DNA of 64,000 nucleotides from Eledone cirrhosa. Taxonomy: Eukaryota. Under the pieces are notes generated by a model. That model did not search any database, was not told the origin of the DNA, and saw nothing but the letters and a program-made list of their open reading frames with translations. The position numbers and the translations under genes are program-made. The stretch spans positions 93,930,001 to 93,994,000 of the forward strand of contig OZ024740.1 of NCBI GenBank assembly GCA_964016885.1, in the 5' to 3' direction. Of the stretch, positions 1-47,230 are shown one piece after another; position 1 is the stretch's first letter; each line of letters opens with the position of its first letter.

Positions 1-3000
1 CTCCTTCTCACTCTTCCATTAGAGCTTAAGATCGTCCATGAAGAGGATGTGATTGATGGTAAGCTCTCCCTTTCCCAACTTATATCCTGCTCTCACTAAT
101 CGAAGTATAATGGTCAGAGGCATCAGGGCAAGGACAAACAACAGAGGGGACAGACTATCTCCCTGGGAGATACCTCTCTTGATTTTCACGCCCCCTAAGG
201 ATTCTCCAGCTGATGTTAACTCTGTTTTCCAGGACTTCATACTTTTGCTCAACAACTGTCTGATATTATCTGCCACCTTGAAGATCTCTGGACTTTTGGT
301 GATCCAAGAATGAGGCACCATGTCAAATGCCTTTTTGTAGTCTAACCATCCCATGGAAAGACCAGTGTGTCTCCTCTTGCAATTCCTCATTACCATCTTA
401 TCGGTAAGTAACTGGTCTTGTGTACCACTGGACTTCTTTCGGCATCCTTTCTCTTCGTCCGGTAACAAGTTGTTTGTGTGGAGGTGATGGTAGATTTCCT
501 CAGACACAATGCTCGTCAACAGTTTCCACATTACGGACAGACATGTGATAGGTCTATAGTTGGTAACATCATTACCCTTGCTTCGGGTTTTCATTACCAG
601 AACTGTGGTACCTTTTGTCAACTACTCTGGTACCTGACCTGACATCAAGCAGTCATTGAACATGGTTGTCAGTTTCGGGTGGAGGGATGTTATATTTTTA
701 ATCCAATACCCCTGCATACCATGGGCCTGGTGATTTCCAGTTGGTTATTTTGTTGGCCTGCCCCTTAAGATTTTCAACTGTGATTCTCAAATAAGTTTTG
801 TGTGTGCCTGTTCACTAATATCCTTTTGTACTGTCTCAATTCACACTGCCTGGTCATTATGTTTAACACCCTGCTCCCATATTCCTCTCCAGAATGTCTT
901 AGTTTGTTCCGCCTCAGGGATCAAGTCGTTGCTTCTTTCTTTCCCTTCAAGCTGTCCAAACAACATCCTCTGGTTGTTGTCAAACATGCAGTTCTGTCTG
1001 TACTGACTGACTCTGCTCTCGTATTGCCGGATTTTTGCACTCTTTTCTACAATGCGTTGCTTCAGTTACTCTATGATAATATTTAGACTTTTCCTCCTAG
1101 TTTTGTACTTTATTTCCAGTCTATTTTTAGTGTATATGTTTTTTAGTGTCCAATTAAGTAGGGACTCAAGCTTTCCAATGTCATTTCTCATTTCCCTGAT
1201 TTGACCATTCAGTCGTTTCTTCCACCAATATTCTGATCTTTCTTGTTTGCTGTTTCCTCTCGCTTTCATGCCAAGTAATATCCTCACCGCATTTGCTGTT
1301 GCTTTGAGGATACTGTTGCACTGGTGAAGGCTTATCGCCTCAAAGTATGGGCTGACTTTGTTTACCTTAGCTGTTGTTTCTTTTAACTTTTTCATGTCTA
1401 CAAATCTTAGGTTCATAGGTTTCCCACTATCATTGTTCATTTCATCTACCACTAAGTTTAAGATATCAACCAAATATTGTCCGAGCTCGTCAGCATTCAT
1501 CTCCTCAATGGCCGTATGTCTGTTCCAGGTATTTTTTATTTCAGCATTCAGATCATTCTCTATTTCGGATGGTTCCTCCGTTCTCTCAACCTCTTCACCT
1601 TCATTTCCCACTGGCTCGTTTGCCTGTCATACTCCACTCTCCATTTCCAACCTAATCTCTCTGCTCAGTTCCTCCAGTTCCAGCTCGCTTATCCACCCAT
1701 TAGTTCATATTACCCGATCCTGCCCGGCCAAATTTTGGTTAAATAGACCAATCTCGTTCCATATGTTATGCATCCGTTTTCTATAGCCTTTTTCCTTGGG
1801 GTTACTCTTCAGGTAACATTGCATAACAGTTCTATTCAATTCTTTCGTCTAGTTGGTTCTGGTCCCTTTCTTTCTTCTTCTTCTGACACCAGCAGTATTT
1901 AGTTGACAGCCAGGTCCCTGCTGCTGAGCCAGGGAGCACCAGCTTTGTGAGAGTCTATCACATGACATTCCAGTCTCCACTTCACCGTTATTCGAACTGT
2001 TTAGTTTCGACATTGAAACACGCTTATCGAGGATTGGTGAATGTATGGTTACATAACCACCGCTGATTTCATCACCTCCGGAGATTTGATCACCCCCGGT
2101 GATTTTAGCGTGGCACTATCACGCTGTAGACGAACATAAATAAACAAACAAACAAATAGGTAAAAAAAAACCAAAATAAGCATGAGTTTAATTGTAATGT
2201 AATGTTTGAATGTCTGACTTAGTTTTTTTGCTTGTATGACTGTCGGTTTGCTTTACTTTTCTATTTTTCTTTTCTTTGCGTTTTTCGTTGCTGCTGTGCT
2301 GTTTTTATTTTTATTTTTATTTATTTTTTGTTTGACCTGGTCATTAAATCAGTCTATTTATATATTTTGATGCCTTCCTCATTTAGTGGGAATACTATGA
2401 TGCCTGTCTTTGCAGGAGGTAGTGGGAGAGAATAGCGGCGGTAGCGATAATGAGGCAGTGTCGGTGGTGGTGGTGATGTGCTAGTAATACATAGCAGGAG
2501 GTAGTGGGAGAGGATAGCGGCGGTAGCGATAATGAGGCAGTGGTGGTGGTGGTTTTGTGCTAGTAGTACTTATCAGGAGGTATTGGGAGAGAATAGCGGC
2601 GGTAGCGATAATGAGGCAGTGGTGGTGGTGATGTGATCGTAGTACTGTAGTGATGGTTTTGAAGTTGAAGTAGAAATAGTAGTTGAGGTAACTTGACTAG
2701 AGTTTTTGGCGTGGTGATGGTGGCGTTGGCGTTGTTGGTGGTGAAATGATTTGCATGTCTGTCCACTTAGCCATTTTTCTCTTTTTCGACTATAACATTT
2801 CTGATCCAAAATTAAATATTATTTATTGGAGCCCTATGCCGTAATGTGATGTGTTGTCGCCTGCTGAGGGTAAAGCTGTAATCGTATATTTCATTTGTAA
2901 TAAGAATTATTCTAGCACAGTTGGTTTAAATAAGTAAAAATCAAAAACTTACGGGAGCGATTCCATAACGATATATATCCACCATGTGCGTTTTCTTCCC
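1..3000 (-). mobile_element. R4/Dong-like RLE non-LTR retrotransposon, family A copy 1 (5' half, cut by window edge, decayed)
   Basis: RT motifs NYRPITCL, WLDYKKAFD, GISQGDSLSP, FMDDLKL (ORF 19-621). Colinear with 33040-36108. Likely ATG at 2013 (-). 5' terminus GGGAAGAAAACGCAC at 3000 abuts a TTA run. Confidence 0.9.
2412..2655. repeat. ~81-bp tandem repeat x3 in the 5' leader of Dong-A copy 1
   Basis: CAGGAGGTA(G/T)TGGGAGAG...GCGGCGGTAGCGATAATGAGGCAGTG recurs at about 2413, 2495 and 2574. Confidence 0.9.
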
Positions 3001-3015
3001 TTATTATAATTATTA

Positions 3016-3202
3016 GGGCGGTGAATTGGCAGTATCGCTAGAGGATCGGACGCCATGCTTTCACGTATGGAGTTACGGGCCTTGCCATTCTGAGTTCAAA
3101 TCCCGCCGAGGTTAACTTTGCCGTTCATCCTTACGGGGTCGATAAAATAATGTACCAGTATATTACTGGGTATTTGCTGGCCTTGTGCCAAATGTAGAAA
3201 CA
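3016..3202 (+). mobile_element. tRNA-headed SINE (Nin/Deu-like core), followed by (ATT)n
   Basis: A-box-like TGGCAGTATCG, B-box GAGTTCAAATCCC, core TTCATCCTTACGGGGTCGATAAAATAATGTACCAGT. Related copy at 46958-47141. Confidence 0.85.
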
Positions 3203-3235
3203 ATTATTATTATTAGTATTATCATTATTATTGTT

Positions 3236-6200
3236 GGTGAAGCCACGCTTCTTATCGCGTCCAGATTTTTTTCAACGTTACCTTTTATTCAAGTTTTAAA
3301 TTTGATAACAGCTTAGAAGAAGTGACCCACCTAATACAGGGGTTGAATAGTAAATAATACGGCACCCCTTTACGGGGTGTCGTATTCGTATTCGTATTCG
3401 TATTTGTGTAAAAACTATTTTATTGAAAAATTTTAACATGGATAACACAAGAAAGAGAGAGAGCGCTGTCAGTCAACACAGAAAGAGGGAGACTTTATCA
3501 GCATGTCAACAAGACAGCGTTCCAGCGGAGGTAAATATAAACGAAAATATTACAAAGGAACAAAAAGATAGTTACAGATTTAAAATTAACAAATATTGCT
3601 AACACAAACAACACGAACAATAACACCAACAATAACAACAACAAGAACACCAACAACAACACCATCAATAACAACAGCAACAACAAAAATAACAGCGGTA
3701 AGGTCGAGAACGACAATAACAAAAATAACAGCGGTAAGGTCCAGAACGACAATAACAATGACAATAACAACAGCCACAACAACAAAAATATAAGGAACAG
3801 TATCAACAAAAACAACAATAATAACAACAGCCACAATAACAGTAACAACAGCAACAGTATCAACGAAAACAATAACAACACCAACAACTGTACCAACGAA
3901 AACAACAATAATGACACCGATAACTGTAATAGCGATCTCAGAAACCACCAGTAAGACCAGTAGCGGCAGCATTAGTGGTGCTGCTGAAAAAGTGACCACT
4001 ACATTTGCAGGTGTCACGCGAAATATCGAGACAGTGTTAGTCACAGAGGTGGAGATGGCAGTCGCAAGGGCCATGGTAACAAGAAGCGCAAATAGAGTTT
4101 CCCTGAAACCTCCACCCGATTTTTTCAAGGACCAGCTTCTACGGAGGGGGACTTGCCGCACCGTAAGCACAATCTCACATCAGGTGGAGAGAGCCACGGA
4201 GGCCCAAATCCAAAAGGCCTTGGGGTGCGTCTGGGCATGCAAAACCCACATCACCCGAGGCAGAAAGTACGCCACAGTAGACTTATTTTCGCCACCCCCC
4301 AGGAAGCAAAGCCTCACTCTTTGGAAACCCTAAAGAGTGAGGAGATAATATGGGTGCCCTCCTACTGCGGGCAGAAAATTGTGAAGGTCAAAGTAACCCA
4401 GGTCCCACCCAACGTGCCCATACCTTGGCTGGCCGCGTCTGTCCTTGCTGGAATCGAGAACAGGGCGACCATGCTGCAAGTAGAAAAAATGGGGATAGAG
4501 TACTGGTCAGGTATAGGCATGCAAATGCTTATACAAACTAACCAGGAATGTATCGACGCTATCCCCGATATCATAGACATCGAGGAAGGATTCCGACTCC
4601 CTATAAGTATAGAAGAAAGACGGCCACAATGTTATCTCTGTGGGGTCGAAGGGTCACCTCAGGGCCTTTTGCCCGGAGAAGACAGCGAAGAAGGACCCTC
4701 TCCTTCAAATACCTGGTCCGCTGCTACCAAGAGCAGGGCAAGAAACAAACGTAGAAGCCCCTTCCACGGTGAGTAGAAGAGGCAACGTCCTTAGCACCCG
4801 TACCAATGCCATGGACAACAAAAGCAGCATCATCAGTATCGGCAACACCAATAGCTCCATTTGAAGTAGCTACACCAACAACAACATTGCCGAAGAGGGC
4901 TCCACTACCACCACCAACAGCCGTGGAATACATATCCCTCCCAGACGCCACATAATCCGACATGGAGTTTGAGGCGGGAGTGAAGTGGCAAACGGTCTGC
5001 TACAAAAAACAAATAAGAAAAAAAACCCGTTAGATTCACCCTCCAAAAGCGAAGGCATGCAAAGAGGGGTAAAGGCAGCAAGGAAATTTGCAGCAACACC
5101 ACCACCATCACCACCACAAACACCAACAACGCAAACACAACAAGACACACACACCAAACAGCAACAAGAAGAAAACAGCAACAAAATCCACCCTCCCGCC
5201 AAAAATTACACAGCCATAAACATGGGAAAAAAAGAACTCATACCATATATAAAGCAGCACACAGACATCACAGAAAAAAAACTACTACACCCCACCGACA
5301 CCAAGAACTCTCGCGACAAACATAAGCATCATCGAAATCTCAATAGAACAGTACAAACATTTCAAACAAAAATTCCCCAAAGCAGTTGGAGACTTCAGAG
5401 TGTCGGTTACCAAGAGGATATAGACTGACATCCTCTTGGAAACACCCATCACCAGCTAAAGGGACGGTTCTACTGTCCCTTCACCACACGAACAAGGTAA
5501 GTTACCCTTTCTCACTTGCCCCGTTTCTCATCCAACATGGCTGTACTCAGAATAGGCAGTATAAATGCTCGTGCCTGGGGTCATCTTCGAAGCAGGGTCA
5601 CCTTCTCATTGAGCTCAGGTCACTAAACATAGATGTGCTGGCCATCAGTGAAACCAGAATCTCCGAAGCACAAGCCTTCGCACTGATCTTGGACGGCTAC
5701 GATGTATACGCATCTCCCAGCCGTCCAGGATCGGGGGAGGGGAGGGGTTGCCGACCTTTTTCGGAGAGGCTTGGATCTCGCGATACGGGCTATCTTCCTG
5801 CACCCAGAAGTTAAGTCGGGGGTGCTGGACGTGGCGGCAGCGAAGGCAAAGCTTTCAGGCTAGTAGCCGTCTACGCGACAGCAGGGGTAGGAAGGCCAGA
5901 TTTCTTACGACGTCTAGAGACCTTCCTTGGAAGGTCCCGCTCTTTAGTGTTAGTCGTCGACTGGAACGGTATCTTGGATGGAGGCTGGGATCGTGTGTGG
6001 CTAGTGGATAGAGGAGGAGGGAGCAAGAGACTCACCAACCTGCTCAGACGTTTTCAACTGTCTCACAGGTATCAACTGCATCACCCGAATGTCCCAATGT
6101 GGACATGGACAAACCGCATCGGCTCATCCAGATCGTATCTCGATAGGGTATTCTGCAGAGAACTTGATATGGCTAGTATAAGTTGTCCACAATTTAAAAT

Positions 6201-9200
6201 AGTCAACTAGACAGATCACGAATTTGTGATCTGTGAGATCGACATAGACAGATTCATAGACAAGGGCCTGGTTAATGGAAGCTAAACGCGTCTTTCCCGG
6301 CGCGCAAAGCCTACAGAGACCGGATTAGAGTATTAGTTAAGCGGGCGTTGACGGGAGCGGTCGTCAACAACAGGTGATGGTTCGCCCTGAAAAGGGCAAT
6401 TGAAGTAGAGTCGATTAGGTTTAGCAAAGGAGTAGTAATAGAGGAAAATAGAGTAGAGCGAGAGCTAGTCAGAAAGCTAGAAGAGGCGTTTGGAACAGGC
6501 ATCGCAACCGACGTGCTTGCGGCGAGATTGGCACTCGACCAATTCTTCAACGTAAAACACGAAGGCTGCGTTGTCAGAGCTAGAGCAGGTGCTCTGAAAC
6601 ACGAGGAGACAAAAGCCATCCAATGGGCCCGGGTGGCAGAGGCGCGACGTGGCAACACAGCCACAATTCGGTCTTTCTCTGACCAAAACGGGTGCGTGAT
6701 GCTCGAACCCGAGCGAATGTGTGAAGCTTTTCAGCAGCACTTTTCTGAACTGTTCGGGAGCGGCGGCGGTCCGGATCGGGGCATGGACTTTACTGCATAG
6801 CTCGACGGACTGCCTCGGCTCTCGACGACCGCAGCACAGTGTTGCGAAAAGCCAATAACAGCCGGTGGAATACGGGAAGCGATGGCTTACTGCACAAGAG
6901 GTAAATCGCCAGATTTAGATGCTCTGTCCTACGAGCTTTATGCATTTATGACTGACTTGTCGGTGACCTCTTGGCAGATGTCTACTGCAACTGGCAGCAG
7001 AACGGGGGGAGCATTCCCAGTTTTGTGAGCCGCGGAGCCGTTGCGCTGCTGAGAAAAGAACTGAAAAATGGGGATGTTATCGATAAGTTCAAGACCCATA
7101 ACTCTGCTAAACGAAGAGTTCAAGATTTTGGCCAAGGTTTTAGCAACGAGGTTGGCGCTTGTCGTCAAGGGTCTGGTGAGAGAGGCGCAGACATGGGACA
7201 TTCTGGACAGATACACACACGACAACCTCCACCTCATGCGATACATCATAGAGAGGGTAGTTAAGGAACCTGGCAAGGGTAGGTCCCTGATCAACTTGGA
7301 TCAATCCAAAGCATTCGATATGGTCGACCATCGGTACCTGGCGGCGATCCTCGAGGCAGCCGGTTCCGGCCCCGTTTTCGGGGGTTGGATCGCAGCAATG
7401 TACAGCGACATCTGCTCAGTTGTGAGGGTGAACGGTCACCTGTCGCAGCCGTTCAGCATCATGCGCTCTGACCGCCAGGGTTGTCCCCTCTCGTCCCTCT
7501 TGTACGTATTGTCTCTCGAGCCGTTATTGCACAAACTGGGGGCGATGAGGGGCGTCCCACGCGAAAAAAGATTTGGGAAATCCGAGTCGGCTTGCGCTGA
7601 CGACGTCACCGTGGTGGTGTCGAGCACCAGATACGTCCAGATGCTCGGCACGGCTCTCAAGGAATACGAAGCGGTGACAGGAGCAAATATAGCCAGGAAA
7701 AACGATGGGCTTGAAGCTCCGCACCTGGAGAGGCAAGTCGATGCCGTCCGACAGCGTCGTGGGGTGTTGGACGGACGGAGCGTTTACATTGCTCGGGATC
7801 TGGTTCGGAACGGACCTTCAGATGGAGAAAAACTGGAACGAGGAGACGTGCAGGGTGGCCTCCCTCACCCATACATGGGCTGAGAGCAAGCTGTCCCTGA
7901 AAGGCCAGGCGGAGGTGGTGAATGTGTACATCGCATCCGCCATCTGCTACCGCCTCACCGTCGTCCCTTGCTCCAGCCCAACTCTCACCAAAATGGTGGC
8001 CTCCTCTTCCGGCTTTTGTGGAAAGGACGCGCTCCCATGGTCAGACGATCCATCTGCTGTCAACACCCGTTGCGTGGAGGACTGGGCATGCCAGGGCTGA
8101 TGATGCACAAACATGCGCTGAGGGTGAGACATCTCTGGTGCTTCCTCGATTGTGAACGGGTGTGGTCGCCGTTCGCCAGGCACATTTTCCCACAGCTCGT
8201 CTCCTTGACGGAGCTGGAGTCCTGGGTCAGAAAAAGTCCGAGGGATAGCGCTTGGAAACTAGAATGTCTCCAGGCGCTCACTGCCCTCTCCCAGTTGGGC
8301 ACCAGTATCGGTGGATCATCCACCTCGGCGTTCTATAGAGGACTAGTGGAGGGGAAGTGCGACGACATTCTCGGAGAGATCATGGGCATCGAAAAAGATC
8401 AGCTGATTGCTCTCTTCCGGAGAACTTTCAGCCCAGGGCCTATGGATAACTTCCAAAAATCTTTGGCCTGGCTGTGCTACCGGGGAGCGCTGCCGGTTCG
8501 AGATAAGCTCTACAGGCATGGAAGTGCCGTCAGCCGAACCTGTCCGAGATGCGCGTATAGCGACGAAACCATTGTGCACGCACTCGTTCAGTGCCCGAGC
8601 ATTGCTGACTTCTGGAGCTATGTCGACAGTTGCTGTCGCGTGTAGGACTGATCCGTTTATCGACCGAGTCCATTGTGCAGATGGTCTCACCGTCTTCCTT
8701 CGTGGAGGAAGGGCAGGCTGTTTTCATCTGCCTGGTGGACATGGCGAAAGAGATTGTGTGGTGGACAAGGTTAAAAGGATTAAAGACAAACACTTTCCTC
8801 TTCGGCGAATCCCTAATTAACTTTTTCAAGTTTCACTTGAAGAGGAAAATCAGGGTGGAGAGGCAAGTGCTGCTTTCTAGCAAGTTTGTTGAAAGGTGGG
8901 TGAATGTAGCGGGAATGTCCGAGTGAACGGGACCACTCTGAATATGCGTCTGTAGTTTGAGAGATGGACAAATTGAGAGAGGGCGCTTGCCCTGGTAGTC
9001 AGAGTGGCCGAGGTCTTTTGTGTGGATTTCGCCACGAGTAACCCTCGGAGGTTTCCCCCCTATTGGGGAATTTGTCATTGTTTCAATTTTCATTTTATTG
9101 TTTATATATATATATCTTTTATGTATTTTTATTTTATTTTCTTATATAAATAATAAAAAAAAAATGTACACGCACAAAACCCACATCGTTCCGCCCTGTT

Positions 9201-9251
9201 CCGTCTGTGATGTTTTTATTGATGTCAGCCCCTGTGGCCAATAAATAAATC
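3236..9251 (+). mobile_element. Tx1/L1-clade non-LTR retrotransposon copy 1 (full length, decayed; 5' type I)
   Basis: ORF1 from ATG 3438 with a CX2CX4HX4C knuckle split by a frameshift. ORF2 5537-8955 with APE (ISETR, SYLDRVF), RT (LDQSKAFD, QGCPLS, ADD) and zf-RVT (CPRC..H..C). Ends AATAAATAAATC before (ATT)n. Confidence 0.92.
5537..8955 (+). pseudogene. Tx1 copy 1 ORF2 (APE-RT-zf-RVT), many stops and frameshifts
   Basis: ORF-track fragments between 5386 and 8926 are colinear with ORF2 of copy 3. Confidence 0.9.
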
Positions 9252-9284
9252 ATTATTATTATTATTATTATTATTATAATTATT

Positions 9285-12200
9285 GGCGAACTACGTAGTA
9301 AATCGTATCATCGTGAGCTCCGCAAAGGTTTGTTATTTCCGTTTGTTAAAAATTGCCATTTATGGAAAATTTTTATTGCTAGCCCTATATAAGCGCACAT
9401 ACATTGTTTTCCGAAAATGACACCCAAAAAGATTAGGGCCTTGTGCCCAAAATTTAAACTTTTATGATTATCAAAAAATGGCTAAATCACCGCTGCACCA
9501 AGTAGCTGAGAGCCTTCCTCACAAACTAACACCTCAAACCGACACCACTATTGTAGTTATTACTACGTTTGCCAACACTAAAAATTTAAGCAGTGGCAAT
9601 ATTTTTAATTTGTCTCAGGCAGACATTCATTTCCCGCCATTACCAATGACTGCAGGTGTTAAAGCCGCCACCACCCCCACCACCGCGACAACCACCACCC
9701 CACCACCACGGCGGCAATAGATAACAAAAAAAAAATCGTGATGTCGAAATGAATTCAAACAGAATGGACTCTTCCACACCGAGCACCATCGACGTCACCA
9801 CCACCTCAACTGAAACTAAAATTAATAATAACAAAAATAACGATAACAACAAGAGCAACAATGACATTAAAAAAAACCACCCTGAATTTTGCCAGAGTAG
9901 CAAAACAGTGCGAATCATTTACGGTAACTCAGGAGGAATTAGAAAATGCCAAAAAAATGGTAAAGAAAGATGGGTACAGGGTCAGCCTCACCCCCCCCCC
10001 CCACACACACACACACACCACCACTACACACCTAATAAAATGGAGTATCGGCGCCTATGCACCGTGACGTATCGATCAATTAATGTAAAATGGCGCCGAG
10101 TGGAACGGGCATCCGACTCCCAAATCCAAAAGGCTTTCGGACATGTGTGGGCAAGAAAAACCCACATCAGACGTGGCAGTAGTATGGAACTTCGGCGGCT
10201 ACGATGTGTACGCATCTCCCAGCCGTTCGGGATCGGGGGTGGAGTTGCTGTGCTTTTTCGGAGAGGTTTGGATCTTGCCATACGGGCCATCTTCCTGGAC
10301 CCATAAGGTAAGTTGGTGGTGCTGGACGTGACCAGCCGAGACGGGCAAGCATTAAGGTTAGTGGCCGTCTATGCCCCGACAGGAGCAGGGCGGTCTGATT
10401 TCTTTCGGCGTCTGGATACCTTTCTTGGAACGCCCCGCTCTTTAGTGTTAGTGGGCGACTGGAACGGGGTCTTAGATACACGCTGGGACTGTGTGGGATT
10501 AGTGGATAGGGGAGGACGTTGCAAGAGTCTCACCAACCTGCTCAGGCGTTTTGAACTGTCTGACAGGTACCGATTGGATTTCCCGAATGTACCAATGTGG
10601 ACTTGGACAAATCGCAGAGGGTCATCCAGATCATATCTAGATAGAGTATTTTGTAGGGCAATAGATAGTTCTAGCATAGGTGGTCCACAATTCAAGATAG
10701 TCAGCTACACGGACCACAAATTCGTGATCTGTGTGCTTGACTTAGATAGGCTTCATAGACGAGGACCCGGCTACTGGAAGCTAAATGTGTCCTTACCAGC
10801 GCGCAAGGCCTACAGTGACCGGATTAGCGAACTAGTTAAGCGGGCGTTGACGGGGGCTATCGTCAACAACAAGTTGTGGTTTTGCTCTGAAAAGAGCAAT
10901 TAGAATAGAGTACATTAGGTTTAGTAAGGCTTTAGCAATAGAAACAAATAGAGCAGAGGGAGAATTAGTTAGAAAATTAGACGAGGCGCTTTGCAAAGGC
11001 ATCGCGACCGACGTACTTGCGGCGAAATTGGCCCGTGACCAATTCTTCAATGCAAAGCACAAAGGCTGCGTTGTCAGAGATAGGGTGCGTGCTCGCAGAC
11101 ACGAGGAGACGAAAGCCGTTCAATGTGCCCGAGTGGCGGAGGCGCGTCGTGGCAACAAAGCTGCAATCCGGTCTTTGGTGGACCACGACAGACGCATGCT
11201 ACTCGATCCCGGGCAAATGTGTGAAGCGTTTCAGCGACACCTCGCTCAACTGTTCGGGAGTAGCGGTGGGCCGGATCGAGGGATGGACTTTAGTGTCTAC
11301 CACGACGGACTGCCGCGGCACTCGGCCACTGAGGCGGAGTGTTGCGAAAAGCTGATAACAGCCGCTGAAGTACGGGAGGCAATGACTGACTGCACAAGGG
11401 GTAAATCGTCTGGTTTGGATGGTCTGCCATATGAACTTTACGTACAAACTCTAGACTTGTTCGGAGGCCTCTTGGCGGACGTCTACTACAACTGGCAACA
11501 GAACAGGAGAATTCGCAGCTCTGTGAGCCGAGGAGCGGTGGCGCTGCTGAGAAAGGTTCCGAACAAGGGGGATAACATAGATAATGTTAAGCCCATAACC
11601 CTGCTAAACACAGAGTTCAAGATTTTGGCCAAGGTGCTAGCAAATAGGTTGGCGCTTGTCATTAGTGGTCTGGTGAAGGAGGCGCAGACATGCGCCATTC
11701 CCGACAGATCCATCCACGACAACCTCCACCTCATGCGATCCATTTTAGAGAGGGTAGCTAGGGAACCTGGCACTGGTGGGGCTTTGATAAATTTAGATCA
11801 GTCGAAAGCTTTCGATAGGGTCGGCCATCGTTACCTTGCGGCAGTCCTGAGGGCGGCTGGCTTTGGGCCCGTCTTAGGAGGCTGGATCGATGCCATGTAC
11901 ACCGAAAACTGCTCTGTGGTGAGAGTGAACGGTCACCTTTGGAACCGTTCAACATCATGCGCTTGCTCCTCCAAGGATATCCCCTCTCGTTCCTCTTGTA
12001 CGTATTGACTCTCGAGCCATTTCAGCACAAACTGGAGACATTAAGGGGGGGTCCCGCGCGAACTAGGATGCGGAAGATCCGTCTCAGCATATGCGGACGA
12101 TGTCACCGTAGTGGTGTCGAACGCCTAACACATTGAGGCGATCGGCACAACACTAAGAGAATACGAAGCGGTAAAAGGAGCAATGATCAACCAGGAAAAA

Positions 12201-13696
12201 CAGTGGGCCTGCTGCTCGGCACCTGGAGAGGCAGGTCCATGCCGTCCAACAGCGTCGTCGGGCGCTGGACGGACGGACGGTTAAATTGCTAGGGGTCTGG
12301 GACTGTCCGGACCTCCAGAGGGACAAAAACTGGGACGAGGTGACGTGCAGGGAGGCTTCTCTAACCCAGAAATGGGCGGAGAGGAAGCTATCCCTGAAAG
12401 GTCGAGCGGAGGTGGCCAACGCGTAAATCGCGTCCGCCATCAACTACCGCCTGACCGTCGTACCTTGTCCTAAGCTCCGCCTGACGGCGCTGGAGCGTTT
12501 GCTCTTTCGCCTTTTGTGGAAGCGACGCACGCCGATGGTCAGGCGGTTCATCTGCTGTCAACACCCGCTACGTGGAGGGCTGGGCATGCCGTGGCTGATG
12601 ATGCGCAGACACGCGCTCAGGCTACGACATCTCCGCTTCTTCCTCGACGGTGATCAGGTTTGGTCGCTGTTTGCTAGACACGTCTTTCCCCAGCTCGTCT
12701 CCTTGACTGAGCTGCAGTCCTGGATAAAGCGAAGTCCGAGAGGGAGCGCTTGGAGACTGGAATGTCTTCAGGCGCTCACAACCCTCGACCAATCGGGCAA
12801 TGTGATCGGTGGAAAATCCACCTTGGCATTCTATAGAGGATTAGTGGAGGGGAAGAGCGACGACGTACTTGGAGAAACTCTAGGTGTCAACGAAAATCAA
12901 CTAGCCAATCTCTTCGGAAGGACTTTCGGGCCGGGGCCTATGGGCAACTTCCAGAAATCCTTGTCCTGGCACTGCTACCGGGGAGCTTTGCCAGTTCGGG
13001 ATAAACTCTACAGGCATGGAGGTGCCGTCCGCCGGGCATGTCCGAGATGCGCGCAGGGCGACGAAACCGTCCTGCACGCACTCGTCCAGTGTCCGAGCAT
13101 TGCTGACTTGTGGGTTTATGTCGAACACCTGCTGTCACGGGTAGGACGGATCCAGCTATCAGCTGAGTCCATCGTGAGTATTTCCCCGCCCTCTTCCTTT
13201 AGCCGGGAAGGGCAGGCAGTTTTTATCTGTATGGTGGCCATGGCGAAAGATAGAGTATGGTGGACACGTTTGAAACGGCTGAAGACGAGCCCTTACCTCT
13301 TCGGTGATGCTCTGATTAACTTTTTCAAATTTCATTTGAAAAGGAAAATCAGGGTAGAGAGGGAAGTGCTCTCTTCCCAGCATTTTGTTGAAAGATGGGT
13401 GAGAGAAGCAAGTATAGCCCGAGTGAATGGGCCTACTCTTAGTATGTGTCTGTAAATTAAAGGTGGAAAACTGGGAGACGGCCCTTGCCCTGGTGGTCAG
13501 TGTCACTGTGGTCTTTTAACGGGATTTCTCCACAAATGTCCCTTGGAATCCTCCCCCCTATTGGGGAATTTTTCTTTGTTATTTTATTACAACCTCTGTG
13601 TTTTTTACACGCAGAAATGCCCATCTGTACCGTCCTGTATTGTCCTGTACTGTCCTTAATGTCTACTTTATGTAAACCCTTGTGGTTAACAAAAAA

Positions 13697-13697: not shown

Positions 13698-13736
<39 letters not shown>

Positions 13737-15377: not shown

Positions 15378-15409
<32 letters not shown>

Positions 15410-31561: not shown

Positions 31562-31567
31562 GTTATT

Positions 31568-36108: not shown

Positions 36109-36121
36109 TATTATTATTATA

Positions 36122-36184
<63 letters not shown>

Positions 36185-36777
36185 GAACGCCATGGTTGAC
36201 GGAGGCTCGGCTCTGTAAGTTATTGTACATTTTGACCGCTATAACAATTGTAAATTGTTTAAAACTTTAACCAAATTGTAGACAAAAACAGCCTCCTCCT
36301 CGTGAGAGGGGTCTTTCTGCCCGTTAGTCGGCCCTTCGGGGGTTAAATAAACGCTTATTGGGGTTTTGTGCCCAATATTTATTTTAAACAAAAAATACAT
36401 GGCTACGAAAAAGAATGTTCATAGGTCACTCCCACACATTCCGTCTTCTTCTTCATCAATCGTCACTACAGTAGAGAGAAGATTGTCTCTCTCCCGCCCT
36501 TCTCTAAATATGTTTCTATCCCTCCCTTCTCTTTTGCAAGCGACGCCAGTAAAGAAAATCACGTGCAAAGCATGGAACATTTCTCCACGACGACGAAAAC
36601 GACGAAAAAGATGTGCGGTAAATACGAAAACCCATTTCATTCGTATGACGTCATGAATAATAGCAGTAGCAGCCGTAATAACAGCAGCATCAGCAACAGT
36701 GACAAGAAAAACAACAGTAGCAGCCGAAACAGCATCAGCAGCAGCATAAACAACAACAGCATTAGCAGCAACAGAAA

Positions 36778-36809
<32 letters not shown>

Positions 36810-39800
36810 ACAACAACCACAGCAACAGCGGCGGTGGCAGTAGTCGTAGTACCTGCAGCAACAACAAAAGTAACAGCAGCTCTGACGACGACAACAACAA
36901 CAACAGCAGCAACAAAAAACAATCTCGTTTGCAGGTATCGCAAAGAACCTGGAAACCATCCTCATAACAAATGAGGAATTACAGGAAGCGAAGAAGATGG
37001 TGACGAAAACCGGACACTGAGCAATCTGCAAGGCAGCCGAAACATTTTTCGAAACCCAACAGCACTGTACGGTCACGTACCGTACAGTAAACACAAAATC
37101 CCTTAGGGTTGAAAGAGCCACATATGCTCAAATACAAAAAGCCTTAGGGTCCGTTTGGCAGCGGAAAACGCATATCACCCGAGGCAAGAAATATGCCACT
37201 GTAGACGTGCTTTTTGCCACACCCCAGGAGGCAAAGGCTCAATCCTTAGTGACCCCAAGGAGCGAGGAAATGGTGTTGTTGTCCTCTAACTGCGGGCAAA
37301 AAATCGTGAGGGTCAGACTGACCCACGTTCCCCGGGGATGGCCCCTTCTTGGCTGGCCGCGTCTGTCCTCGTCGGAATCGAGGACAAAACAATTGTACTG
37401 CACCTGCATTGAGATGTTAATCCAAACCAACCAGGAGCGCATCGAAGCTATCCCGGATGTGATAGACTTCGATGACGGCACTCAACTGCAACGAGAAGAC
37501 CCTGAGAAAGGAGAAAACCCCCCACCTTCCGAAACCGGCTCCACAGCTACCAGCAACAGGACACGCGGCAAACAGGAATGATAGGTCCGTGGCACCCATA
37601 CCCACGCCACGGAAACCAAGAACAGCAGCAGCAGTGGAAGTATTAACAACAACAGTAATACCAACTGCAGCTCCAACAGAGACTCCACTGCAAACATCAC
37701 CTACAACAACAAGTGAAAGAGTGGAGCTGGTACCCCTCCCCGACCTCACATAATCAGACATGGAGTGTGAGGTGGCAGAGGGATGGCAAAAGGTCGCAAG
37801 AAGGCACAAACGCAGAAGCAGCGCATCGTCGCCTTCGAAAAGGGAGGAAAGAAATGAAAAAAGGGTAAAGGCTACTGCAAAGAGACTCACAGCAGCAACA
37901 CCACCAACACAATCACCACCCACACTAGCACCACCATGACCACCGGCTACAACCCCACCGCCAACAACAACAACACCTTCAACACCACCACCACAAACAC
38001 CAACATCGCAAACACAACAACAAAACACACACATCCAGCAACAACGACAAGAAAATAGCAGAACCACACCCCACCACCAGAAAAACAAATGCACGGCAAT
38101 AAATACACACAACAAGAAACTAATGACTTACATAATTAAACACACAAACATTTCACAGCACGACTACATAATACCAGCACCAATCAAAACACCAAAGAAC
38201 ATAAACTGGTAAGAATTACACAGAAACAATACACAAACATTAAAACGAAATTCCCCAACGCAGTTGGTGATTTCAGGGACATCGGAGGGACTCTCAACCG
38301 GAGAGTATATACCGACATACTAATAGAAGAGCCGACGACCAGCCGAAGGGACGATTCAACGATCCCTTCACCAGACGATCAAGTGAAAAGTGTTGGAGAA
38401 ACCATCCTTCCTCTACGAAAAGTACGGTAAGTGTTCTTTCCCATCTATTCCACTCCATTTTAAACATGACCTCACTCAGAATAGGCAGCATAAATGCGCG
38501 GGCTTGGGGTCGTCATGGAAGCAGGGCCACCTGCTGAACGACCTCAGGTCACTAAACATAGATTTAGTGGCAATCAGCGAGACCAGAATCTCCGAAGCAC
38601 GGGCCTTCGCACAGATTTTCGGCGGCTACGATGTGTACGCATCTCCCAGCCATCCTGGATTTGGGGGAGGAGTTGCTGTGCTTTTTCGGAGAGGTTTGGA
38701 TCTCGCCATACGGGCCATCTTCCTGGACCCAGAGGGTAAGTTGGTGGTGCTGGACTTGAACAACGGAGACTGGCAAGCTTCAGATAGTGGCCGTCTATGC
38801 ATCGAAAGGAGCAGGGCGGTCTGATTTCTTCCGGCGTCTAGAGACCTTTCTTGGAACGCCCCGCTCTTTAGTGTTAGTGGGCGACTGGAACGAGATCTTA
38901 GATGCACGCTGGGATTAGCGGATAGGGGAGGAGGGTGCAGGATCCTCACCAACCTGCTCAGGCGTTTTGAACTGTCTGAGAGGTACCGATTGTATTTCCC
39001 GAATGTACCAATGTGGATTTGGACAAATCGCAATGGGTCATCCAGATCATAGCTAGATAGAGTATTTTGTAGGGTAATAGATAGGTCTAGCATAGGCTGT
39101 CTACAATTCAAGATAGTCAGCTACACGGACCACAAATTCGTGATCTGTGTTCTTTACTCAGATTCGCTTCAAAGACGAGGTCTCCGGCTACTGGAAGCTA
39201 AACGCGTCCTTACCAGCGCGCAAGGCCTACAGAGACCGGATTAGCGAACAAGTTAAGCGGGCGTTGACGGGGGCCATCGTCAACAACAAGTGGTAGTTGG
39301 TTCTGAAAAGAGTGATTAGAATAGAGTCCATTAGGTTTAGTAAGGCTTTAGCAATAGAGAAAAATAGAGCAGAGGTAGAACTAGTTAGACAATTAGACGA
39401 GGCGCTTAGCAAAGGCATCGCTACCGACGTGCTTGCGGCGAAATTGGCCCTTGACCAATTCTTCAATGCAAAGCACGAAGGCTGCGTTGTCAGAGATAGG
39501 GTGCGTGCTCTCAGACACGAGGGGACGAAAGCCTTTCAATGGGCCCAATTGGCGGATACGCATCGTGGCAACAAAGCTGAGATCCGGTCTTTGGTGGACC
39601 ACGACGGGCGCATGCTACTCGATCCCGGGAACATGTGTGAAGCTTTTCAGCGACACTTCTCTCAGCTGTTCGGGGGCATCGGTGGGCCGGGTCGAGGGAT
39701 GCACTTTAGTGTCTACCTCGACGGACTGCCGCGGCTCTCGGCCACTGAGGCGGAGTGTTGCGAAAAGCCGATAACAGCCGCTGATGTACGGGAGGAAATG

Positions 39801-42060
39801 ACTGGCTGCACAGGGGTAAATAGCCTAGTTTGGATGGTCTGCCCTATGAACTTTAATTACATATGCCAGGTTTGTTCGGAGGCCTCTTGCCGGACATCTA
39901 CTGCAACAGGCGATAGAACGGGAGAATTCCCAGCTCTGTGAGACGAGGAGCAGTGGCACTGCTGAGAAAGAATCCGAACAAGGGGCATAATAGGATAATT
40001 TTAGGCCCATAACTCTGCGAAACACAAAGTTCAAGATTTTGGCCAAGGTACTAGCAAAGAGGTTGGCGCTTGTCGTTGGTGGTCTGGTGAGAGAGGTGCA
40101 TACCTGCGCCATTCCCTACAGATCCATCCACGACAACCCCCACCTCATGCGATACATCGTAGAGAGGGTAGCTAGGGAAGCTGGCACGGGTTGGACTTTG
40201 ATCAATTTAGATCAGTCGAAAGCTTTCGATAGGGTCGACCATCGTTAACTAGCGGCAGTCCTGAGGGCTGCTGGCTTTGGGCCCGTCTTCAGAGGCTGGA
40301 TCGCTGCCATGCACAGCGACATTTGCTCGGTGGTGAGAGTCAACGGTCACCTTTCGGAACCGTTCAACATCATGCGCTCTGTTCGCCAAGGATGTCCCCT
40401 CTCGTCCCTCTTGTACGTATTGACTCTCGAGCCATTACTGCACAAACTGAAGACGTTGAGGGGCGTCCCACGCGAACTAGGATGTCACCGTAGTGGTGTC
40501 GAACGCCAAACACATCGAGACGATAGGCATTACACTAAGAGAATACGAAGCGGTGACAGGAGCAATGATCAACCAGGAAAAGTCAGTGGACTAGCAGCTC
40601 GGCACCTGGAGAGGCAGGTCCATGCCGTCCAAGAGAGTCTTTAGACGCTGGACGGACGGACGGTTTAAATTGCTAGGGGACGGACACAAACTGGGAAGAG
40701 GTGACGAGCAGTGTGGCTTCTCTAACCCAGAAATGGGCGGAGTGGAAGCTATCACCGAAAGGTCGAGCGGACGTGGCTTACGCGTACATCGCGTATGTCA
40801 TCTGCTACCGCCTGACCGTCGTACCTTGTTCTAAGCCCCGCCTGACTGCGCTGGAGCGTTTGCTCTTTCGTTTTTTGTGTAAGGGACGCGCTCCGATGGT
40901 CAGCCGGTCCATCTGCTGTCAACACCCTCTATGTGGAGGGCTAGGAATTCTGTGGCTGATGATGCGCAGACACGCATTCAGGTTACGACATCTCCACCTC
41001 TTCCTCGATGGTGATCAGGTGTGGTCGCCGTTTGCTAGACATGTATTTTCCCAGCTAGTTTCCTTGACGGAGCTGCAGTCCTGGCTCAAGCGAAGACCGA
41101 GTGGGAGCCCCTGGAGACTGGAATGACTTCAGGCGCTCCCAGCCCTCAACCAATCGGGAAATGTGATCGGTGGAAACTCCACTTCGTCGTACTATAGAGG
41201 ATTAGGGGAGGGGAAGAGCGACGACGTACTTGGGGAAACTCTAGGCGTCGACGATTTTAACTAGCCAATCTCTTCGGAAGAACTTTCGGGCCGGGGCCTA
41301 TGGACAACTTCCAGAAATCTCTGGCCTGGCATGGCTACCGAGGAGTCTTGCCAGTTCGAGATAAACTCTACAGGCATGGAGGTGCCGTCAGCCGGGCATA
41401 TCCGAGATCCGCGCAGGGCGACGAAACCGTCCTGCACGCACTCGTCCAGTGTTCGAAAATCCTGACTTGTGGGTTTATGGCGAACCCCTGCTGTCGCGTG
41501 TAGGAGGGATCCGGCTATCATCTGAGTCCATCGTGAGGATTTCCACGCCCTCTTCCTTTAGCCGGGAAGGGCAGGCAGTTTTTCTCTGTCTGGTGGCCAT
41601 GGCGAAAGAGATAGTATGGTGGACACGTTTGAATGGGCTGAAGACGAGCACTTACCTTATCGGTGATGCCTTGGTTGAGTTTTTCAAATTTCATTTGAAA
41701 AGGAAAATCAGAGTAGAGAGGGAAGTGCTCTCTTCCCAGCATTTTGTTGAAAGATGTGTGAGAGAAGCAAGAATGACCCGAGTGAATGGGCCTACTCTGA
41801 GTATGTATCTGTAAATTAAAGGTGGAAAACTGGGAGAGCGCACTTGCCTTGGTGGTCAGGGTCACTGTGTCATTTTACTGGGCTTTCCCCACAAATGTGC
41901 CTCCGAAGTCTCTCCCCCTATTGGGGAATTTTTCATTGTAATTTTTATTACATCATCTGTTTTTGTTTTTATCCGCATAAATGCCCATTTGTACCGTCCT
42001 GTATTATCCTGCACTGTCCTTAATGTCTACTTTATGTAAACCCTTATTGTTAATAAAGAA
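36185..42060 (+). mobile_element. Tx1 copy 4 (full length, decayed; same family as copy 3)
   Basis: Same 5' end GAA(C/T)GCCATGGTTGACGGAGGC, ORF1, ORF2 and 3' UTR as 20724-26590, with many stops and indels. Confidence 0.93.
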
Positions 42061-42099
42061 ATAATAATAATAATAATTATTATTATTATTATTATTATT

Positions 42100-44129
42100 T
42101 GCATTTATCTTGCTTTATGTTCATACGAGTTATCACCAAGTCACAACCAGTGACCTCAAGAGACAACAAGGTCCGCCATGTTCAAGAAAGAACATACATA
42201 TTCACACATGCATCCTTAGTGTCTAGACTTGTGATGTACTTATATTGACAGGATCTTCCTTAGTATATGGGCAGTTCCCATTAGTACTATCTTTTGTATT
42301 TCTCCTATACGCGGGTTTCCTGGGATCTGCGATAAGTAATCATTAGACACCTTAGGTATCATTCCCAGAGCGCCTACATCCACTGGTATTGTTTTAGTTC
42401 TCAATTTCCACATTTTTCCAATTTCTAGCTCCAGGTCAATTTTTCAAATGTTTTTATAGATACATTCTTGTCTATTGGAACAGACATATCAATTAGCAGG
42501 CATACCCTCCTTTGAAAGTCCTTCAATATTATATCAGGTCTATTTGCATCTATTTTTTCGGTCTGTTTGGATGCTAAATTTCGACAAGATTGAGATGTGA
42601 TCTTTTTCAAGTATGGGAGGTGGTTGATGCTCCCACCAATTCTTTTGATGGGGCAGGTCAAAATGCTTACACATTATCCAATCTATGTATTGTGCAGCTC
42701 TGTCATGCCTGTTTAGGTATTCGGTTGGAGCTATAGGACTGCACATTGAAATTCTATGGTCAATGGTCCCTGGTTGCTTTTTGCATACACGGAATAATGG
42801 GCTGCACCCATTTTTTATTATGTTGGCTTGGTAATTTTTTGTTGGCAGACACTGAACTTGTGCCGATATAATCAGTCCTTCAGTCTCCGATTTCAGTCCA
42901 GAGGATGCCAACCACTGATGGGTTAAAGTTTTGTCAACATCAGGATTGTTAGCTCGCTCTGGGTATTTTCCATACAGAGGCTTTTCTTGCCATTTCTTAG
43001 CCAGTTTCTGTAGCAGTTCTTTCTTTGCAGTTACTTTTACCTCTTTGCTTTTTCTGTGTTTTCCATTTCAGCAGTCGATTACTGTATCTTTGTACATCTT
43101 TTGTAATGGAATATGATCTTTTGGTGCTTTCGTGTTTCAAAACGAGTTTGATAATCCAATCATGTGATTCCCTTAGATATATGGATAATCCAATCGTTGC
43201 AGTTTTCAACGCAATGTCTAACTGGACTAACCACGTCCTCCTTCTTTCCTAGGGAGATATATTCTATCTATGTCTGCCTTATGGTGATGCATTCTGTGCA
43301 TGGTTAAGAATTTTCGGATTTTTGTATCGAGCCTACGGATCTCTGTGCTTGACCAGTTGATGACATTGTAACTGTAGGTTACTACTGGTATGGCAAGCTT
43401 GTTTATGGCATCGATCCTATTCCTTGCATTCAATTCCGTTCTTAAGATTGCTCTTACTCTGCGGTAACATTCCTTCCTTATCCTTTCCCTCCTTGTCGAG
43501 TGCTTGATTCCGTCTCCTTCACAAACACCTAGATATTTGTAAGTTTTTTCTTGATGAAACTCTCTTATCACGTTCCCCCGATCAAGATTAATGTCTGAAC
43601 TCTTCAGCAGCTTTCCTCTGGTGAACGTTGCTTTGGCGCATATATCCAGTCCAAACTCCATTTTAACGTCATCACTGAACTGCTTCACAGTGGATAATAG
43701 CCCTTGCAATTGTTCATCATTTTTTGCAAATAGTTTCAGGTCATCCATGTAGAACAGTGGATTAATGGTTTTGTCATAGACTCTATATCCATGTTTTGTT
43801 TCATTGAGCATTTTACTTAATGGTATAAGTGCGATGCAGAATAAAAGCGGTGATAAAGAGTCACCCTGAAAAATTCCACAATTAATATTAACTTCTCCAG
43901 CTTCCAGTGATTTTGTTTCACTATTCAAAAGGAGTGTCGTTCTCCATGTCTTCATACTGAATGACAAAAACCTCCTGACAACGGGCGATATTTTGAAAAT
44001 CTCTAAACATTTTTCAATCCAACTGTGTGGCAAACTATCGAATGCTTTTTTATAATCTATCCAAGCAATAGATAGATTTTCGTCTCTATTATGACAATCT
44101 TCCAGTATCATTTTGTTAACCAGAAGCTG
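42100..44129 (-). mobile_element. Dong-B copy 2 (5'-truncated within RT)
   Basis: Colinear with 26610-28678; ends in a TTA run at 44131. Confidence 0.92.
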
Positions 44130-44174
<45 letters not shown>

Positions 44175-44186
44175 GTTGTTGTTATT

Positions 44187-45050
44187 CCTTGAATCTCAGT
44201 CATTGATGTTGGTTAACTGGAAAGTCCGTTGGATTGAATATCAGGCCACTACCTGCAGCCTCAGATATTCAGAACGTATCGGAGGGTTCTTGCTGTTCCA
44301 AGCAAGCATGCCTTTTGAAGCGTTCCAAAAAGCGTGAAGGGGCCGATTTTCTTTAACCATCCCTGGAAACTTTTGGAGATAGTCCCCAGTGCGCCTATGA
44401 CAATCGGGATCACTTTGACTTCATGGCAGTTCCAAATCCTTTTCACCTCCCACTTTAGGTCCTGGTATCGGTTAATTTTCTCCCTCTCCTTCTCTTGCAC
44501 TCTCGTGTCGAACGGGCAGGCCACACCCACAATCAGACACGATCTTTTTTCTTTGTCCACAACCACCAGGTGAGGTCTATTGTGTTCCAGTTTTTTGTCC
44601 GTCTGTATCCTAAAATCCCACAGCACCTTCACCTGATTGTTCTCCATCACCGCCTCTGGCCTATGCTCATACCATTTCTCAGAATGTGGTAAATTGTTTA
44701 CTTTGCACAGGTGCCAGTGGATCACCCTGCCCATCACATCGTGTCTCCAGCCCTTATAGTGGGTCTGGGCTAGGTGTTTACACTCGGACACAATGTGAGC
44801 CACAGTCTCCTCTCTCTCTCCACAGATCCTGCACATTGGGCTAGCCTCCTCCTTGTAGACATGGTGCTTCAACCACTTCGTTTTGAGGGCCTGCTCCTGC
44901 GCAGCCATTAGCATTCCTTCTGTAGCCTTTTTGAGGTCTCCTCTTCTCAACCAGTTCCATGTCTGTGGATCTCTAAATTCAGTTTTCTCAAAGAAGGTAC
45001 TATGAAGGGATTTTCCCTTAAGGTTGCTCTTCCTCCTTGATGTTATTTCC
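44187..45050 (-). mobile_element. Dong-A copy 3 (5'-truncated; CCHC and RLE end only)
   Basis: ORF 44261-44950 with CRICGEREETVAHIVSEC and RHD. Colinear with 31568-32431. (ATT)n on both sides. Confidence 0.92.
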
Positions 45051-45126
<76 letters not shown>

Positions 45127-47230
45127 GGCTACCTACGTAGTAAATCGTATCATCGTGAGCTCTGCAAATGTTTGTTATTTCCGTTTGTTAAAAATTGCCA
45201 TTTATGGAAAATTATTTTTGTTAACTATATATAAGCGCACATACATAGTTTTCCGAAAAGAAGACCCCAACAATTGGGGCCCTGTACCCAAAATTCAAAC
45301 TTTTATGATTATCAAAAAAATTCTTTGGAAAAAAATGGATAATTCACCTCTGCACCAATCAGTTGAAAGCCTTCCTCACAAATTAACACCTCACACCGAC
45401 ACCACCATTGTAAATGTTACTACGTTTGCCAACACTAAAAAAAATATAAGCAGTAGCAATATTTTAAATTTGTCTCAGGCAGACATTCATTTACCGCCAT
45501 TACCAATGACTGAAGGTGTTAAAGCCTCCACCACCACCACCACCGCGACAACAGAAACAAAACACGACTGACGTCACCACCACCACAACTGAAATTAAAT
45601 TAATAATAACAAATATAACGATAACAACAACAGCAACAATGACATTAAAAAAACCACCCTGAGTTTTGCCAGAGTAGCAAAACAGTGCGAAGCATTTACG
45701 GTAACTCAGGAGGAATTAGAAAATGCCAAAAAAATGGTAAAGAAAGATGGGTACAGGGTCAGCCTCACCCTCCCACATAATAAAATGGAGCATCGGCGCC
45801 TATGCACCGTGTCATATCGAACAATTAATGTAAAATCGCGCCATGTGGAACGGGCATCCTAGTCCCAAATCCAAAAAGCTTTGGGACATGTGTGGGCAAG
45901 TAAAACACACATCAGACGTGGGCAGAAGTATGGAACCATGGACGTGTTCTTTGAAACACCAGAGGAGGCTAGAGAACACTCCATGGCCCCATTAAGAAGT
46001 GACGACTTCACACATGTCCCAAGCTATTGTGGCCAGAGACTCATAAAGATCAGGGTGACCCACGTTCCACCGGCCAAATTCCCTGGCTAATAGCGGCCGT
46101 CCTCGCCGTCATCGAAGCCAACACAAAGATAATAGCAATAGCAAAAGAAAAGCAGGAGAACTGGTCCGGATCTGGGATGGAGCTCCTGATGCAAGCGGAC
46201 CTAAATAGCATTGAGGAGATCCCAGAGATAATAAACCTCACTGACGGCAGCCACCTCACCGTAATTGTCGAGGGCAGAAGGCCTAGGTGTGTCGTTTGTG
46301 GTGAAGGAACCCACCTAAGGGCTTTCTGCCCTCAGGCTAAAAGGTTGAGGCCACCTCTCCTACTCACCCCAGTGACTCAACTATCAACACCACCACTAGC
46401 AGAGATGGCAGCAACAACTGTAGCAGCAACAACAGAAGCAACTATAACAGCAACAACCCCAGTAACAGTAGCAAAACCAACACCACCACCACCAGCAAAA
46501 CGAACACCACCACCATCCAACGCGCCAGAATTAGCACCAGCGCGTACACCATCTACCACGCCACAACCAAAACTACGCCTGTAGAGGATTTTCGACTCCC
46601 CCGCCTATCACAACTGGAGACAGATTGTGACGACGAGGAGTGGGAAAAGGTATCAGGAAAAAAAAAGAAACCAAAAAGAAAAAATTCTCTTCCTTCCCCC
46701 TCCAAAAACAAAATACAGAGGGAAACAAATAAATTAACAAACAAAAAGTTAGGACAGATATGCCACCATTCACACCATCATCCTCAACCCCATCACCCCA
46801 ACCACCAACACCATCACCATCATTAACCCCAACACCACCATCACCTACACCACAAAAGTGACCTAAATGCGAAACAGAAATAAACCCACAACAAACGCAA
46901 ACAAAACAAAACAACCAAAACGATACACACTACACAGCATTAAATTTGAACAACAAGGGCGGTGGATTGGCAGTATCAGTAGAGGGTTGGACGCCATGCT
47001 TTCCAGCATAGTTACGTCCCTTTACGATCTGAGTTCAAATCCCGCCGAGGTTAACTTTGCCTTTCATCATTACGGGGTCGATAAAATAAAGTACCAGTAA
47101 TGCACTGGGTATTTGCTGGCCTTGTGCCTAAAGTAGAAACAATTAAATTTGAACAACAAGCAATTATTACACTATATCCAACACAACACCAGCATCACAG
47201 AAAAAGACTACACAACAATCCAAAACATTT
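45127..47230 (+). mobile_element. Tx1 copy 5 (5' type II; 5' UTR and ORF1 only, 3' part lost)
   Basis: 5' end like 9285. ORF1 knuckle CVVCGEGTHLRAFC. Stops at the 47231 hairpin. Confidence 0.85.
46958..47141 (+). mobile_element. tRNA-headed SINE with 19-bp target-site duplication, inserted in Tx1 ORF1
   Basis: TSD ATTAAATTTGAACAACAAG at 46939-46957 and 47142-47160. B-box GAGTTCAAATCCC. Confidence 0.92.

Follow-up and report, generated by a model that had tools for sequence, protein, structure and literature searches.

Two trains of retrotransposons on ATT repeats

The stretch analysed here (the window) comprises 64,000 nucleotides of the mollusc Eledone cirrhosa (contig OZ024740.1, positions 93,930,001 to 93,994,000 of the forward strand). 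It holds long interspersed elements (LINEs) of two unrelated classes joined by (ATT)n runs: Tx1-like elements, which encode an apurinic/apyrimidinic endonuclease (APE), lie on the + strand, and Dong/R4-like elements lie on the − strand. The same target and the same opposite orientations recur through the 3.0-Gb assembly containing the window, on which all genome-wide counts below are based.

The first train opens with the 5' part of a Dong/R4-like LINE (1–3000, − strand; RVT_1 match, 87% to the Dong copy at 31568–36108), whose 3' end lies about 1.5 kb to the left of the window. A short (ATT)n run (3001–3014) separates it from a short interspersed element (SINE; 3015–3202, +) with a terminal CTTGT hairpin like that of the Tx1 3' ends, and an imperfect run (3203–3232) leads into a full-length, decayed Tx1-like LINE of head family A (3233–9251, +), with APE, reverse transcriptase (RT) and zf-RVT matches. 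After a further run (9252–9284) comes a Tx1-like LINE of head family B/E (9285–13697, +), which has lost about 1.45 kb internally near 10190 and measures 4413 bp against about 5.85 kb in other copies. The train ends on (ATT)13 and (GTT)n (13698–13755). To the left it extends about 28.5 kb beyond the window, where the Tx1-like pieces are all on +, the Dong pieces all on −, and eight of eight runs read ATT.

The second train starts at a compound (TTC)5(TTA)n run (20674–20723), followed by a full-length Tx1-like LINE of head family C/D (20724–26590, +) with a CCHC knuckle in open reading frame (ORF) 1 and an interrupted APE-RT-zinc finger ORF2. At its tail, (ATT)6 (26591–26608) forms a tail-to-tail junction with a young, full-length Dong/R4-like LINE of family 2 (26609–31505, −), whose 3' 192 bp are found identically in at least 40 places and which contains a SINE-tail fragment at about 30644–30698. 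Another run (31506–31567) precedes a full-length Dong/R4-like LINE of family 1 (31568–36108, −), whose single ORF is interrupted by one in-frame stop, and the run at 36109–36184 joins this copy head to head to a full-length, decayed C/D Tx1-like LINE (36185–42059, +). Beyond (AAT)6 and (ATT)8 (42060–42099) lie a 5'-truncated Dong of family 2 (42100–44130, −), a run (44131–44186), a 5'-truncated Dong of family 1 (44187–45050, −), an (ATT)25 run (45051–45126) and the 5' part, the ORF1 region, of a B/E Tx1-like LINE (45127–47229, +) that has lost its 3' part and has no ATT end. A second SINE (46958–47141, +) sits inside this last Tx1, between the copies of a 19-bp target duplication starting with ATTA (46939–46957 and 47142–47160). 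Exactly at the breakpoint of the same Tx1 there is an 80-bp near-perfect inverted repeat (47230–47309), and a similar end sequence occurs at a run 19.4 kb to the left of the window.

An initial annotation, made from the letters alone, had placed eleven (ATT)n runs between these elements. All eleven were recovered, each reading ATT on +, with an extra (AAT)6 ahead of the run at 42076. Self-comparison, Pfam matches and translation likewise bear out its five Tx1 copies on + and five Dong-like copies on −, and none of the ten LINEs of the window is nested in another, as it had proposed. Its picture of ten LINEs and one SINE lying end to end needs amending: the runs do join the elements, but a spacer splits the array into two trains, and there are two SINEs, the second nested in the last Tx1. 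Nine of the ten LINE bodies contain neither (ATT)3 nor (AAT)3, so that a repeat-seeking element would have no place to nest in them. The 23,670 bp of window DNA outside the array contain one such run, which puts the runs of the array above chance.

Anatomy and classification of the two classes

The translated ORF1 of the Tx1-like elements contains a CX2CX4HX4C knuckle, and no Pfam match to an L1 ORF1 was obtained; a CCHC-knuckle ORF1 in place of the vertebrate L1 one is a mark of Tx1. A natural open ORF2 matches PF03372 (APE), PF00078 (RT) and PF13966 (zinc finger). The predicted APE fold of a natural open copy (predicted local distance difference test, pLDDT, 95) has the human L1 endonuclease as its best match (1vyb, E 1.8e-19, template modelling score 0.83), and the catalytic residues are conserved. 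The RT scores 222 bits to the 'Transposon TX1 149 kDa' cluster compared with 110 bits to human L1, and among named proteins one from Argonauta is nearest to ORF2 (58%). We also built a quick RT tree of 126 rows, to which this genome contributed two APE-type rows and a single Dong row, the others being database proteins with an RT match of at least 220 residues. The Tx1-like rows and 33 unnamed proteins form a well-supported clade of their own; the base of the tree is unresolved, and neither L1 nor a curated Tx1 element is represented in it. The + elements thus belong to the L1 group and likely to the Tx1 clade, although in the strict sense of the tree we infer the latter. Metagenome relatives are only 24–42% identical and carry an (ATT)5 run at one of 80 loci, far from the match, which makes them uninformative on target conservation.

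The B/E and C/D families share an ORF2 (88–92%) under unrelated heads (9285–13697, 20724–26590, 36185–42059 and 45127–47229), an arrangement that resembles 5' untranslated region (UTR) replacement in L1.

The Dong-like elements have one ORF with an RT, a C-terminal CCHC knuckle and PD-(D/E)xK-type motifs, and no APE. Their RT is nearer to R2 (87 bits) than to L1 (52 bits), the database relatives recovered for it are unnamed proteins, and (TAA)n stands at both ends of the copies, as expected of the R4/Dong group. At the junction in two loci (L125, L150) the Dong 5' end is duplicated over a short length, which suggests repeated priming. Copies 99–100% identical to their nearest neighbour exist in both classes, and thus the Tx1-like and Dong elements have recently been active together.

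Flanks and polarity across the genome

Flank queries began at the first base past the repeat, so the flanks themselves were unselected, and the best 30 of 40 scored matches were retrieved for each query, the window copy among them. (ATT)n stands upstream of all 87 other full-length Tx1-like copies (29/29 for each of the C/D, B/E and A heads), so the possibility that most Tx1 5' flanks would prove non-ATT is not borne out. The C/D head 27-mer occurs 2,340 times in the genome, and a shorter head pattern with TTATT in phase, which is not nested with the 27-mer, occurs 2,359 times. Over the first 95.6 Mb of the window's contig, the range common to both patterns, TTATT is in phase at 96 of the 97 heads listed, and the first 30 C/D heads by position are all preceded by at least five ATT units. 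Dong copies carry (AAT)n in 30/30 cases at the 5' end and in 30/30 at the 3' end. PMC4494074 speaks of a target preference where more than 20% of flanks agree, and the flanks of the Tx1-like elements lie above that share.

Polarity was tabulated at 370 distinct perfect runs from 243 loci, with anchors counted and neighbours unselected, and is near-absolute, contrary to any random orientation. Tx1 ends are sense to ATT in 248 cases and against it in none, Dong ends are against ATT in 266 cases and sense in one, and SINE ends are sense in 76 and against in one. At 236 of the 370 runs an element stands on both sides.

In 13 of 28 family-A copies (L062–L090) an extra G separates the ATT from the head. 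The copying of an RNA cap is known from L1 work, and this G fits a copied cap, in which case the RNA would begin with the head and carry no ATT of its own.

Directly behind Tx1 3' ends there are antisense 3' pieces of an RTE-like element that have (GAA)n tails and so lie in the Dong orientation (L199, L338, L367 and window positions 17348–17600). This RTE-like element may use these sites as a third class and may be a source of (TTC)n(TTA)n compound repeats. The (CTT)n behind three Tx1 ends, considered as a target in its own right, proved to be the tail of this element.

A SINE passenger and the probable geometry of insertion

The SINE, whose head motif has 11,741 exact genome copies, shares its 3' end with the Tx1-like elements: in both, a CTTGT loop on a stem of 3–4 bp lies 16–17 bases ahead of the repeat. 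The hairpin is present in three Tx1 3' families and in the SINE, with stem pairs that are exchanged from one family to another (pair 2, C-G in 123 and G-C in 72; pair 3, G-C in 127 and A-T in 74). CTTGT stems of at least 3 bp occur at 167 of 262 sites, non-element matches included, against 381 of 4,751 control sites. This count is better evidence than the plain alignment of the SINE with the Tx1 3' ends of the window, which is weak (p 0.02 and 0.23). No tRNA was called in the SINE, and an origin of the Tx1 5' UTRs from the SINE was dismissed (p 0.13–0.89). Two further observations concern SINE sequence: at about 9430–9460 the B head repeats the CTTGT hairpin and, behind it, has an A-rich stretch resembling the tail of the SINE, a likeness that is not significant against shuffled sequences, and in eight loci (L375, L376, L383, L394–L397, L400) only the 45-bp head of the SINE is present, repeated in tandem.

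SINE copies land in otherwise unique DNA, require only ATTA at the nick and carry no repeat tail of their own. Among the first 30 loci by position, the scripted 3' end was found in 17, and 13 of these have duplications of 12–19 bp, two being one duplicated event. Twelve of the 13 start with ATTA, compared with 1 of 270 controls. One truncated Tx1 copy (L120) has an 18-bp near-duplication that also starts with ATTA. Renewal of the target by an insertion is shown for the SINE and has been seen once for a LINE; that each LINE insertion renews it is likely.

Truncated copies

The two classes differ when copies are 5'-truncated. The Tx1 set was reduced from 62 rows to 43 by removing 15 library-boundary artefacts, one duplicate and three false 5' junctions; the Dong set of 84 rows was used without hand-cleaning. 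Upstream of the truncated Tx1 copies, (ATT)3 is present in 16, two units in four and none in 23, while (AAT)3 is found in 0/43. Against a background of 0.36% this is a roughly hundredfold enrichment of ATT, yet far from strict. Truncated Dong 5' junctions have (AAT)3 in 74 of 84 and the opposite in none. Among head-anchored Tx1 copies, six of 48 have lost their 3' end, three of these by a direct tail-to-tail join to Dong. Deletion after insertion is thus common and accounts for part of the gap between the truncated Tx1 copies and Dong, perhaps not for all of it; the remaining copies may have inserted at ATTA alone, as the SINE does.

Discussion

The architecture, flanks and polarity of both classes are plain observations. 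We consider it probable that the fixed opposite orientations in which the Tx1-like lineage and Dong occupy (ATT/AAT)n genome-wide result from nicking of opposite strands by an APE and a restriction-like endonuclease (RLE). The initial annotation had suggested an APE-type Tx1 lineage using the trinucleotide of Dong from the opposite strand, and the 5' flanks and the polarity uphold it; that the choice of target lies with the endonuclease and not with annealing of the primer is what we infer.

By analogy with target-primed reverse transcription, the Tx1-like AP-endonuclease would nick the AAT-reading strand and prime reverse transcription there, while the Dong flanks point to its restriction-like endonuclease nicking and priming on the ATT-reading strand. 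Judging from the SINE, the AAT strand would first be nicked by Tx1 at a point 3' of TAAT, the primer would pair with AUUA just behind the 3' hairpin of the RNA, and the second cut would follow 12–19 bp further on. In a pure run, an insertion would thus copy about four to six units, and both of its flanks would still be repeat. New copies would land between old ones rather than inside them, since the repeat is missing from LINE bodies; mixed trains would grow and later be eroded by ordinary deletions. Mixed chains tens of kilobases long were likely built in this manner, as insertions left fresh repeat for the next.

Several points weigh against this interpretation. A SINE that requires just ATTA and no run means that the enzyme alone may be loose, and the strictness of full-length LINEs may come from annealing or tethering. 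Outside pure runs no LINE duplication was found, the single case in 58 being itself a repeat, and inside pure runs they are unreadable. Upstream ATT is retained by just 16 of the 43 truncated Tx1 copies (20 when two units are counted), whereas truncated Dong copies retain their repeat in 74 of 84 cases, a gap that deletion may not wholly explain. The flank samples consist of the best-scoring copies or of copies in order along the window's contig, and the polarity table includes its anchors.

These points bear on an alternative that we regard as unlikely, though worth weighing, in which annealing sets the target: a loose, L1-like APE would nick many T/A steps, only nicks that pair with an (AUU)n read-through RNA tail would be extended, and the ends of full-length cDNAs may anneal to (ATT)n as well. 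The SINE with its ATTA in otherwise unique DNA, the roughly half of truncated Tx1 copies that lack upstream ATT and an APE hairpin loop of L1-like length (aligned to 2v0r/2v0s) all agree with it. Annealing to a few bases, however, should leave unique sequence duplicated at the 5' junctions of full-length copies, as it is for the SINE; this was seen in 0 of 117 heads, and the capped-looking family-A ends fit an RNA without ATT. A related idea, that the RNA brings its ATT inside an outer duplication, was discarded on the same single LINE case in 58. It is quite improbable that the Tx1 particle reaches AAT repeats through tethering by a host factor or the ORF1 protein, with only the phase set by the nuclease; LINE copies are indeed stricter than the SINE moved in trans, but three different heads and variant ORF1s have one target.

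We find it very improbable that the ATT is a mere 3' tail and that trains arose by tandem or segmental duplication or passive pile-up. Tandem duplicates do exist (L206/L207, L387–L389), and 23334–28677 resembles 38875–44129, but these intervals agree at 90.7% in the Tx1 part and 95.4% in the Dong part. Such unequal divergence is not that of one duplication, and a segmental origin of this Tx1/Dong junction was set aside. The 5' flanks contradict the tail explanation too, given that heads in unique DNA are likewise preceded by ATT and that the SINE brings no tail of its own. Assembly misjoins at microsatellites have a practically negligible chance of being the cause, since the copies differ by 2–25% and so were not collapsed, and misjoins could not yield class-specific polarity at 370 runs over many chromosomes.

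Opposite-strand nicking would also make a joint event conceivable, because the first nick of each class would be on the strand that the other must still cut: within a single run, Dong might prime on one strand and Tx1 (or the SINE) on the other, with a head-to-head join as the product. We give this two-element twin priming only a slim chance. There are at least eight repeat-free direct Dong/Tx1 joins of the expected shape (L098, L152, L206/L207, L224, L239, L246, L421, L431) and two Dong/SINE joins (L341, L415), but on present counts ordinary deletion explains them equally well. Tail-to-tail joins serve as a yardstick for deletion because retrotransposition cannot make them; head-to-head joins, at 5 of 67 3'-anchored copies (a lower bound), show no excess over tail-to-tail ones, at 3 of 48 head-anchored copies, and twin priming was therefore not retained as the main source of direct joins.

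Since each of its parts has a precedent, the arrangement does not amount to a new type of system. The consulted parts of PMC4494074 describe (TC)n, (TTC)n, (TTCC)n and (TTTC)n as microsatellite targets of the Tx1 clade. Kibi, Koshi and crocodilian Tx1 elements are likewise APE-type L1-group LINEs in microsatellites, with a target that is T-rich on the element strand; the (TTC)n of Koshi differs from the (TTA)n found here by one base per unit, and SINEU/Tx1-Mar offers a SINE passenger with the target of its LINE. In contrast, (ATT)n is not among the targets listed there, and the host here is a mollusc. Nor do our elements use the (TC)n, (TTC)n or (TTYC)n of the Kibi/Koshi lineage, (TTC)n being only a minor neighbour of (ATT)n. 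The maize LINE1-1_ZM and Chlamydomonas L1-1_CR pairs, in the part of PMC3472496 describing them, also have a 3' stem-loop common to SINE and LINE with compensatory stem changes; unlike those stringent L1-clade pairs, ours has an animal Tx1-like partner, no poly(A) in its insertions and a CUUGU loop.

Nothing is new in the Dong half. Dong is described in the sections consulted as a single-ORF element with an RT and an RLE, a (TAA)n target and occurrence in molluscs (PMC3812793, PMC7998251), the same ORF plan and the same (TAA)n on the element strand as here, and a Myb/SANT-like domain at the N terminus is given for R4/Dong (PMC7998251). Among molluscs, R4-Dong is almost confined to cephalopods, according to the relevant part of PMC10294476, and in Octopus vulgaris both Dong-R4 and L1-Tx1 have recently been active, with no target stated in the parts of PMC13282606 covered. 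The closest functional parallel is SART/TRAS of Bombyx, R1-clade elements that, in the portion of PMC7265360 consulted, insert into one telomeric repeat in opposite directions, are both APE-type, and exchange targets when their endonucleases are exchanged. The Tx1-like/Dong pair works like these two site-specific LINEs on one short repeat without being a member of that system, since SART and TRAS are two R1 APE elements in telomeres, whereas here an APE and an RLE lineage share dispersed (AAT)n on many chromosomes.

The novel part is thus an APE-type lineage using the target of Dong, a new and very simple target for the Tx1 clade. Neither an ATT/AAT-specific Tx1 nor an APE/RLE pair on one microsatellite was found in the searched literature, insofar as partly covered sources allow; Repbase, Dfam, Kojima and Fujiwara 2004, and Fig. 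3 and the supplements of PMC4494074 lay outside that search, and a prior description is possible. The two classes supply a natural case in which unrelated endonucleases converge on the same trinucleotide, each from a different strand. Since copies number in the thousands, natural open ORFs exist and the passenger SINE reveals how the cuts are placed, the respective roles of nuclease and annealing in microsatellite targeting become testable, as does the idea that targeted LINEs produce the sites on which they land and thereby drive AAT repeat content and transposable element hotspots in cephalopod genomes.

Other features of the window

The spacer outside both trains (13760–20670) is AT-rich, with dinucleotide repeats and a palindrome of 340 bp (16012–16350, 93%), and in self-comparison the interval 13,760–20,670 matches no array element. 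To the right of the array, a remnant of another L1-group element (49027–50111, −) has 40–51% protein identity to the ATT-type ORF2, lies in the opposite orientation and has no ATT run; it likely represents a non-targeting lineage. Finally, a weak GIY-YIG match at 55540–56235 (−; E 8e-4, below the cut-off) is perhaps a Penelope-like remnant.

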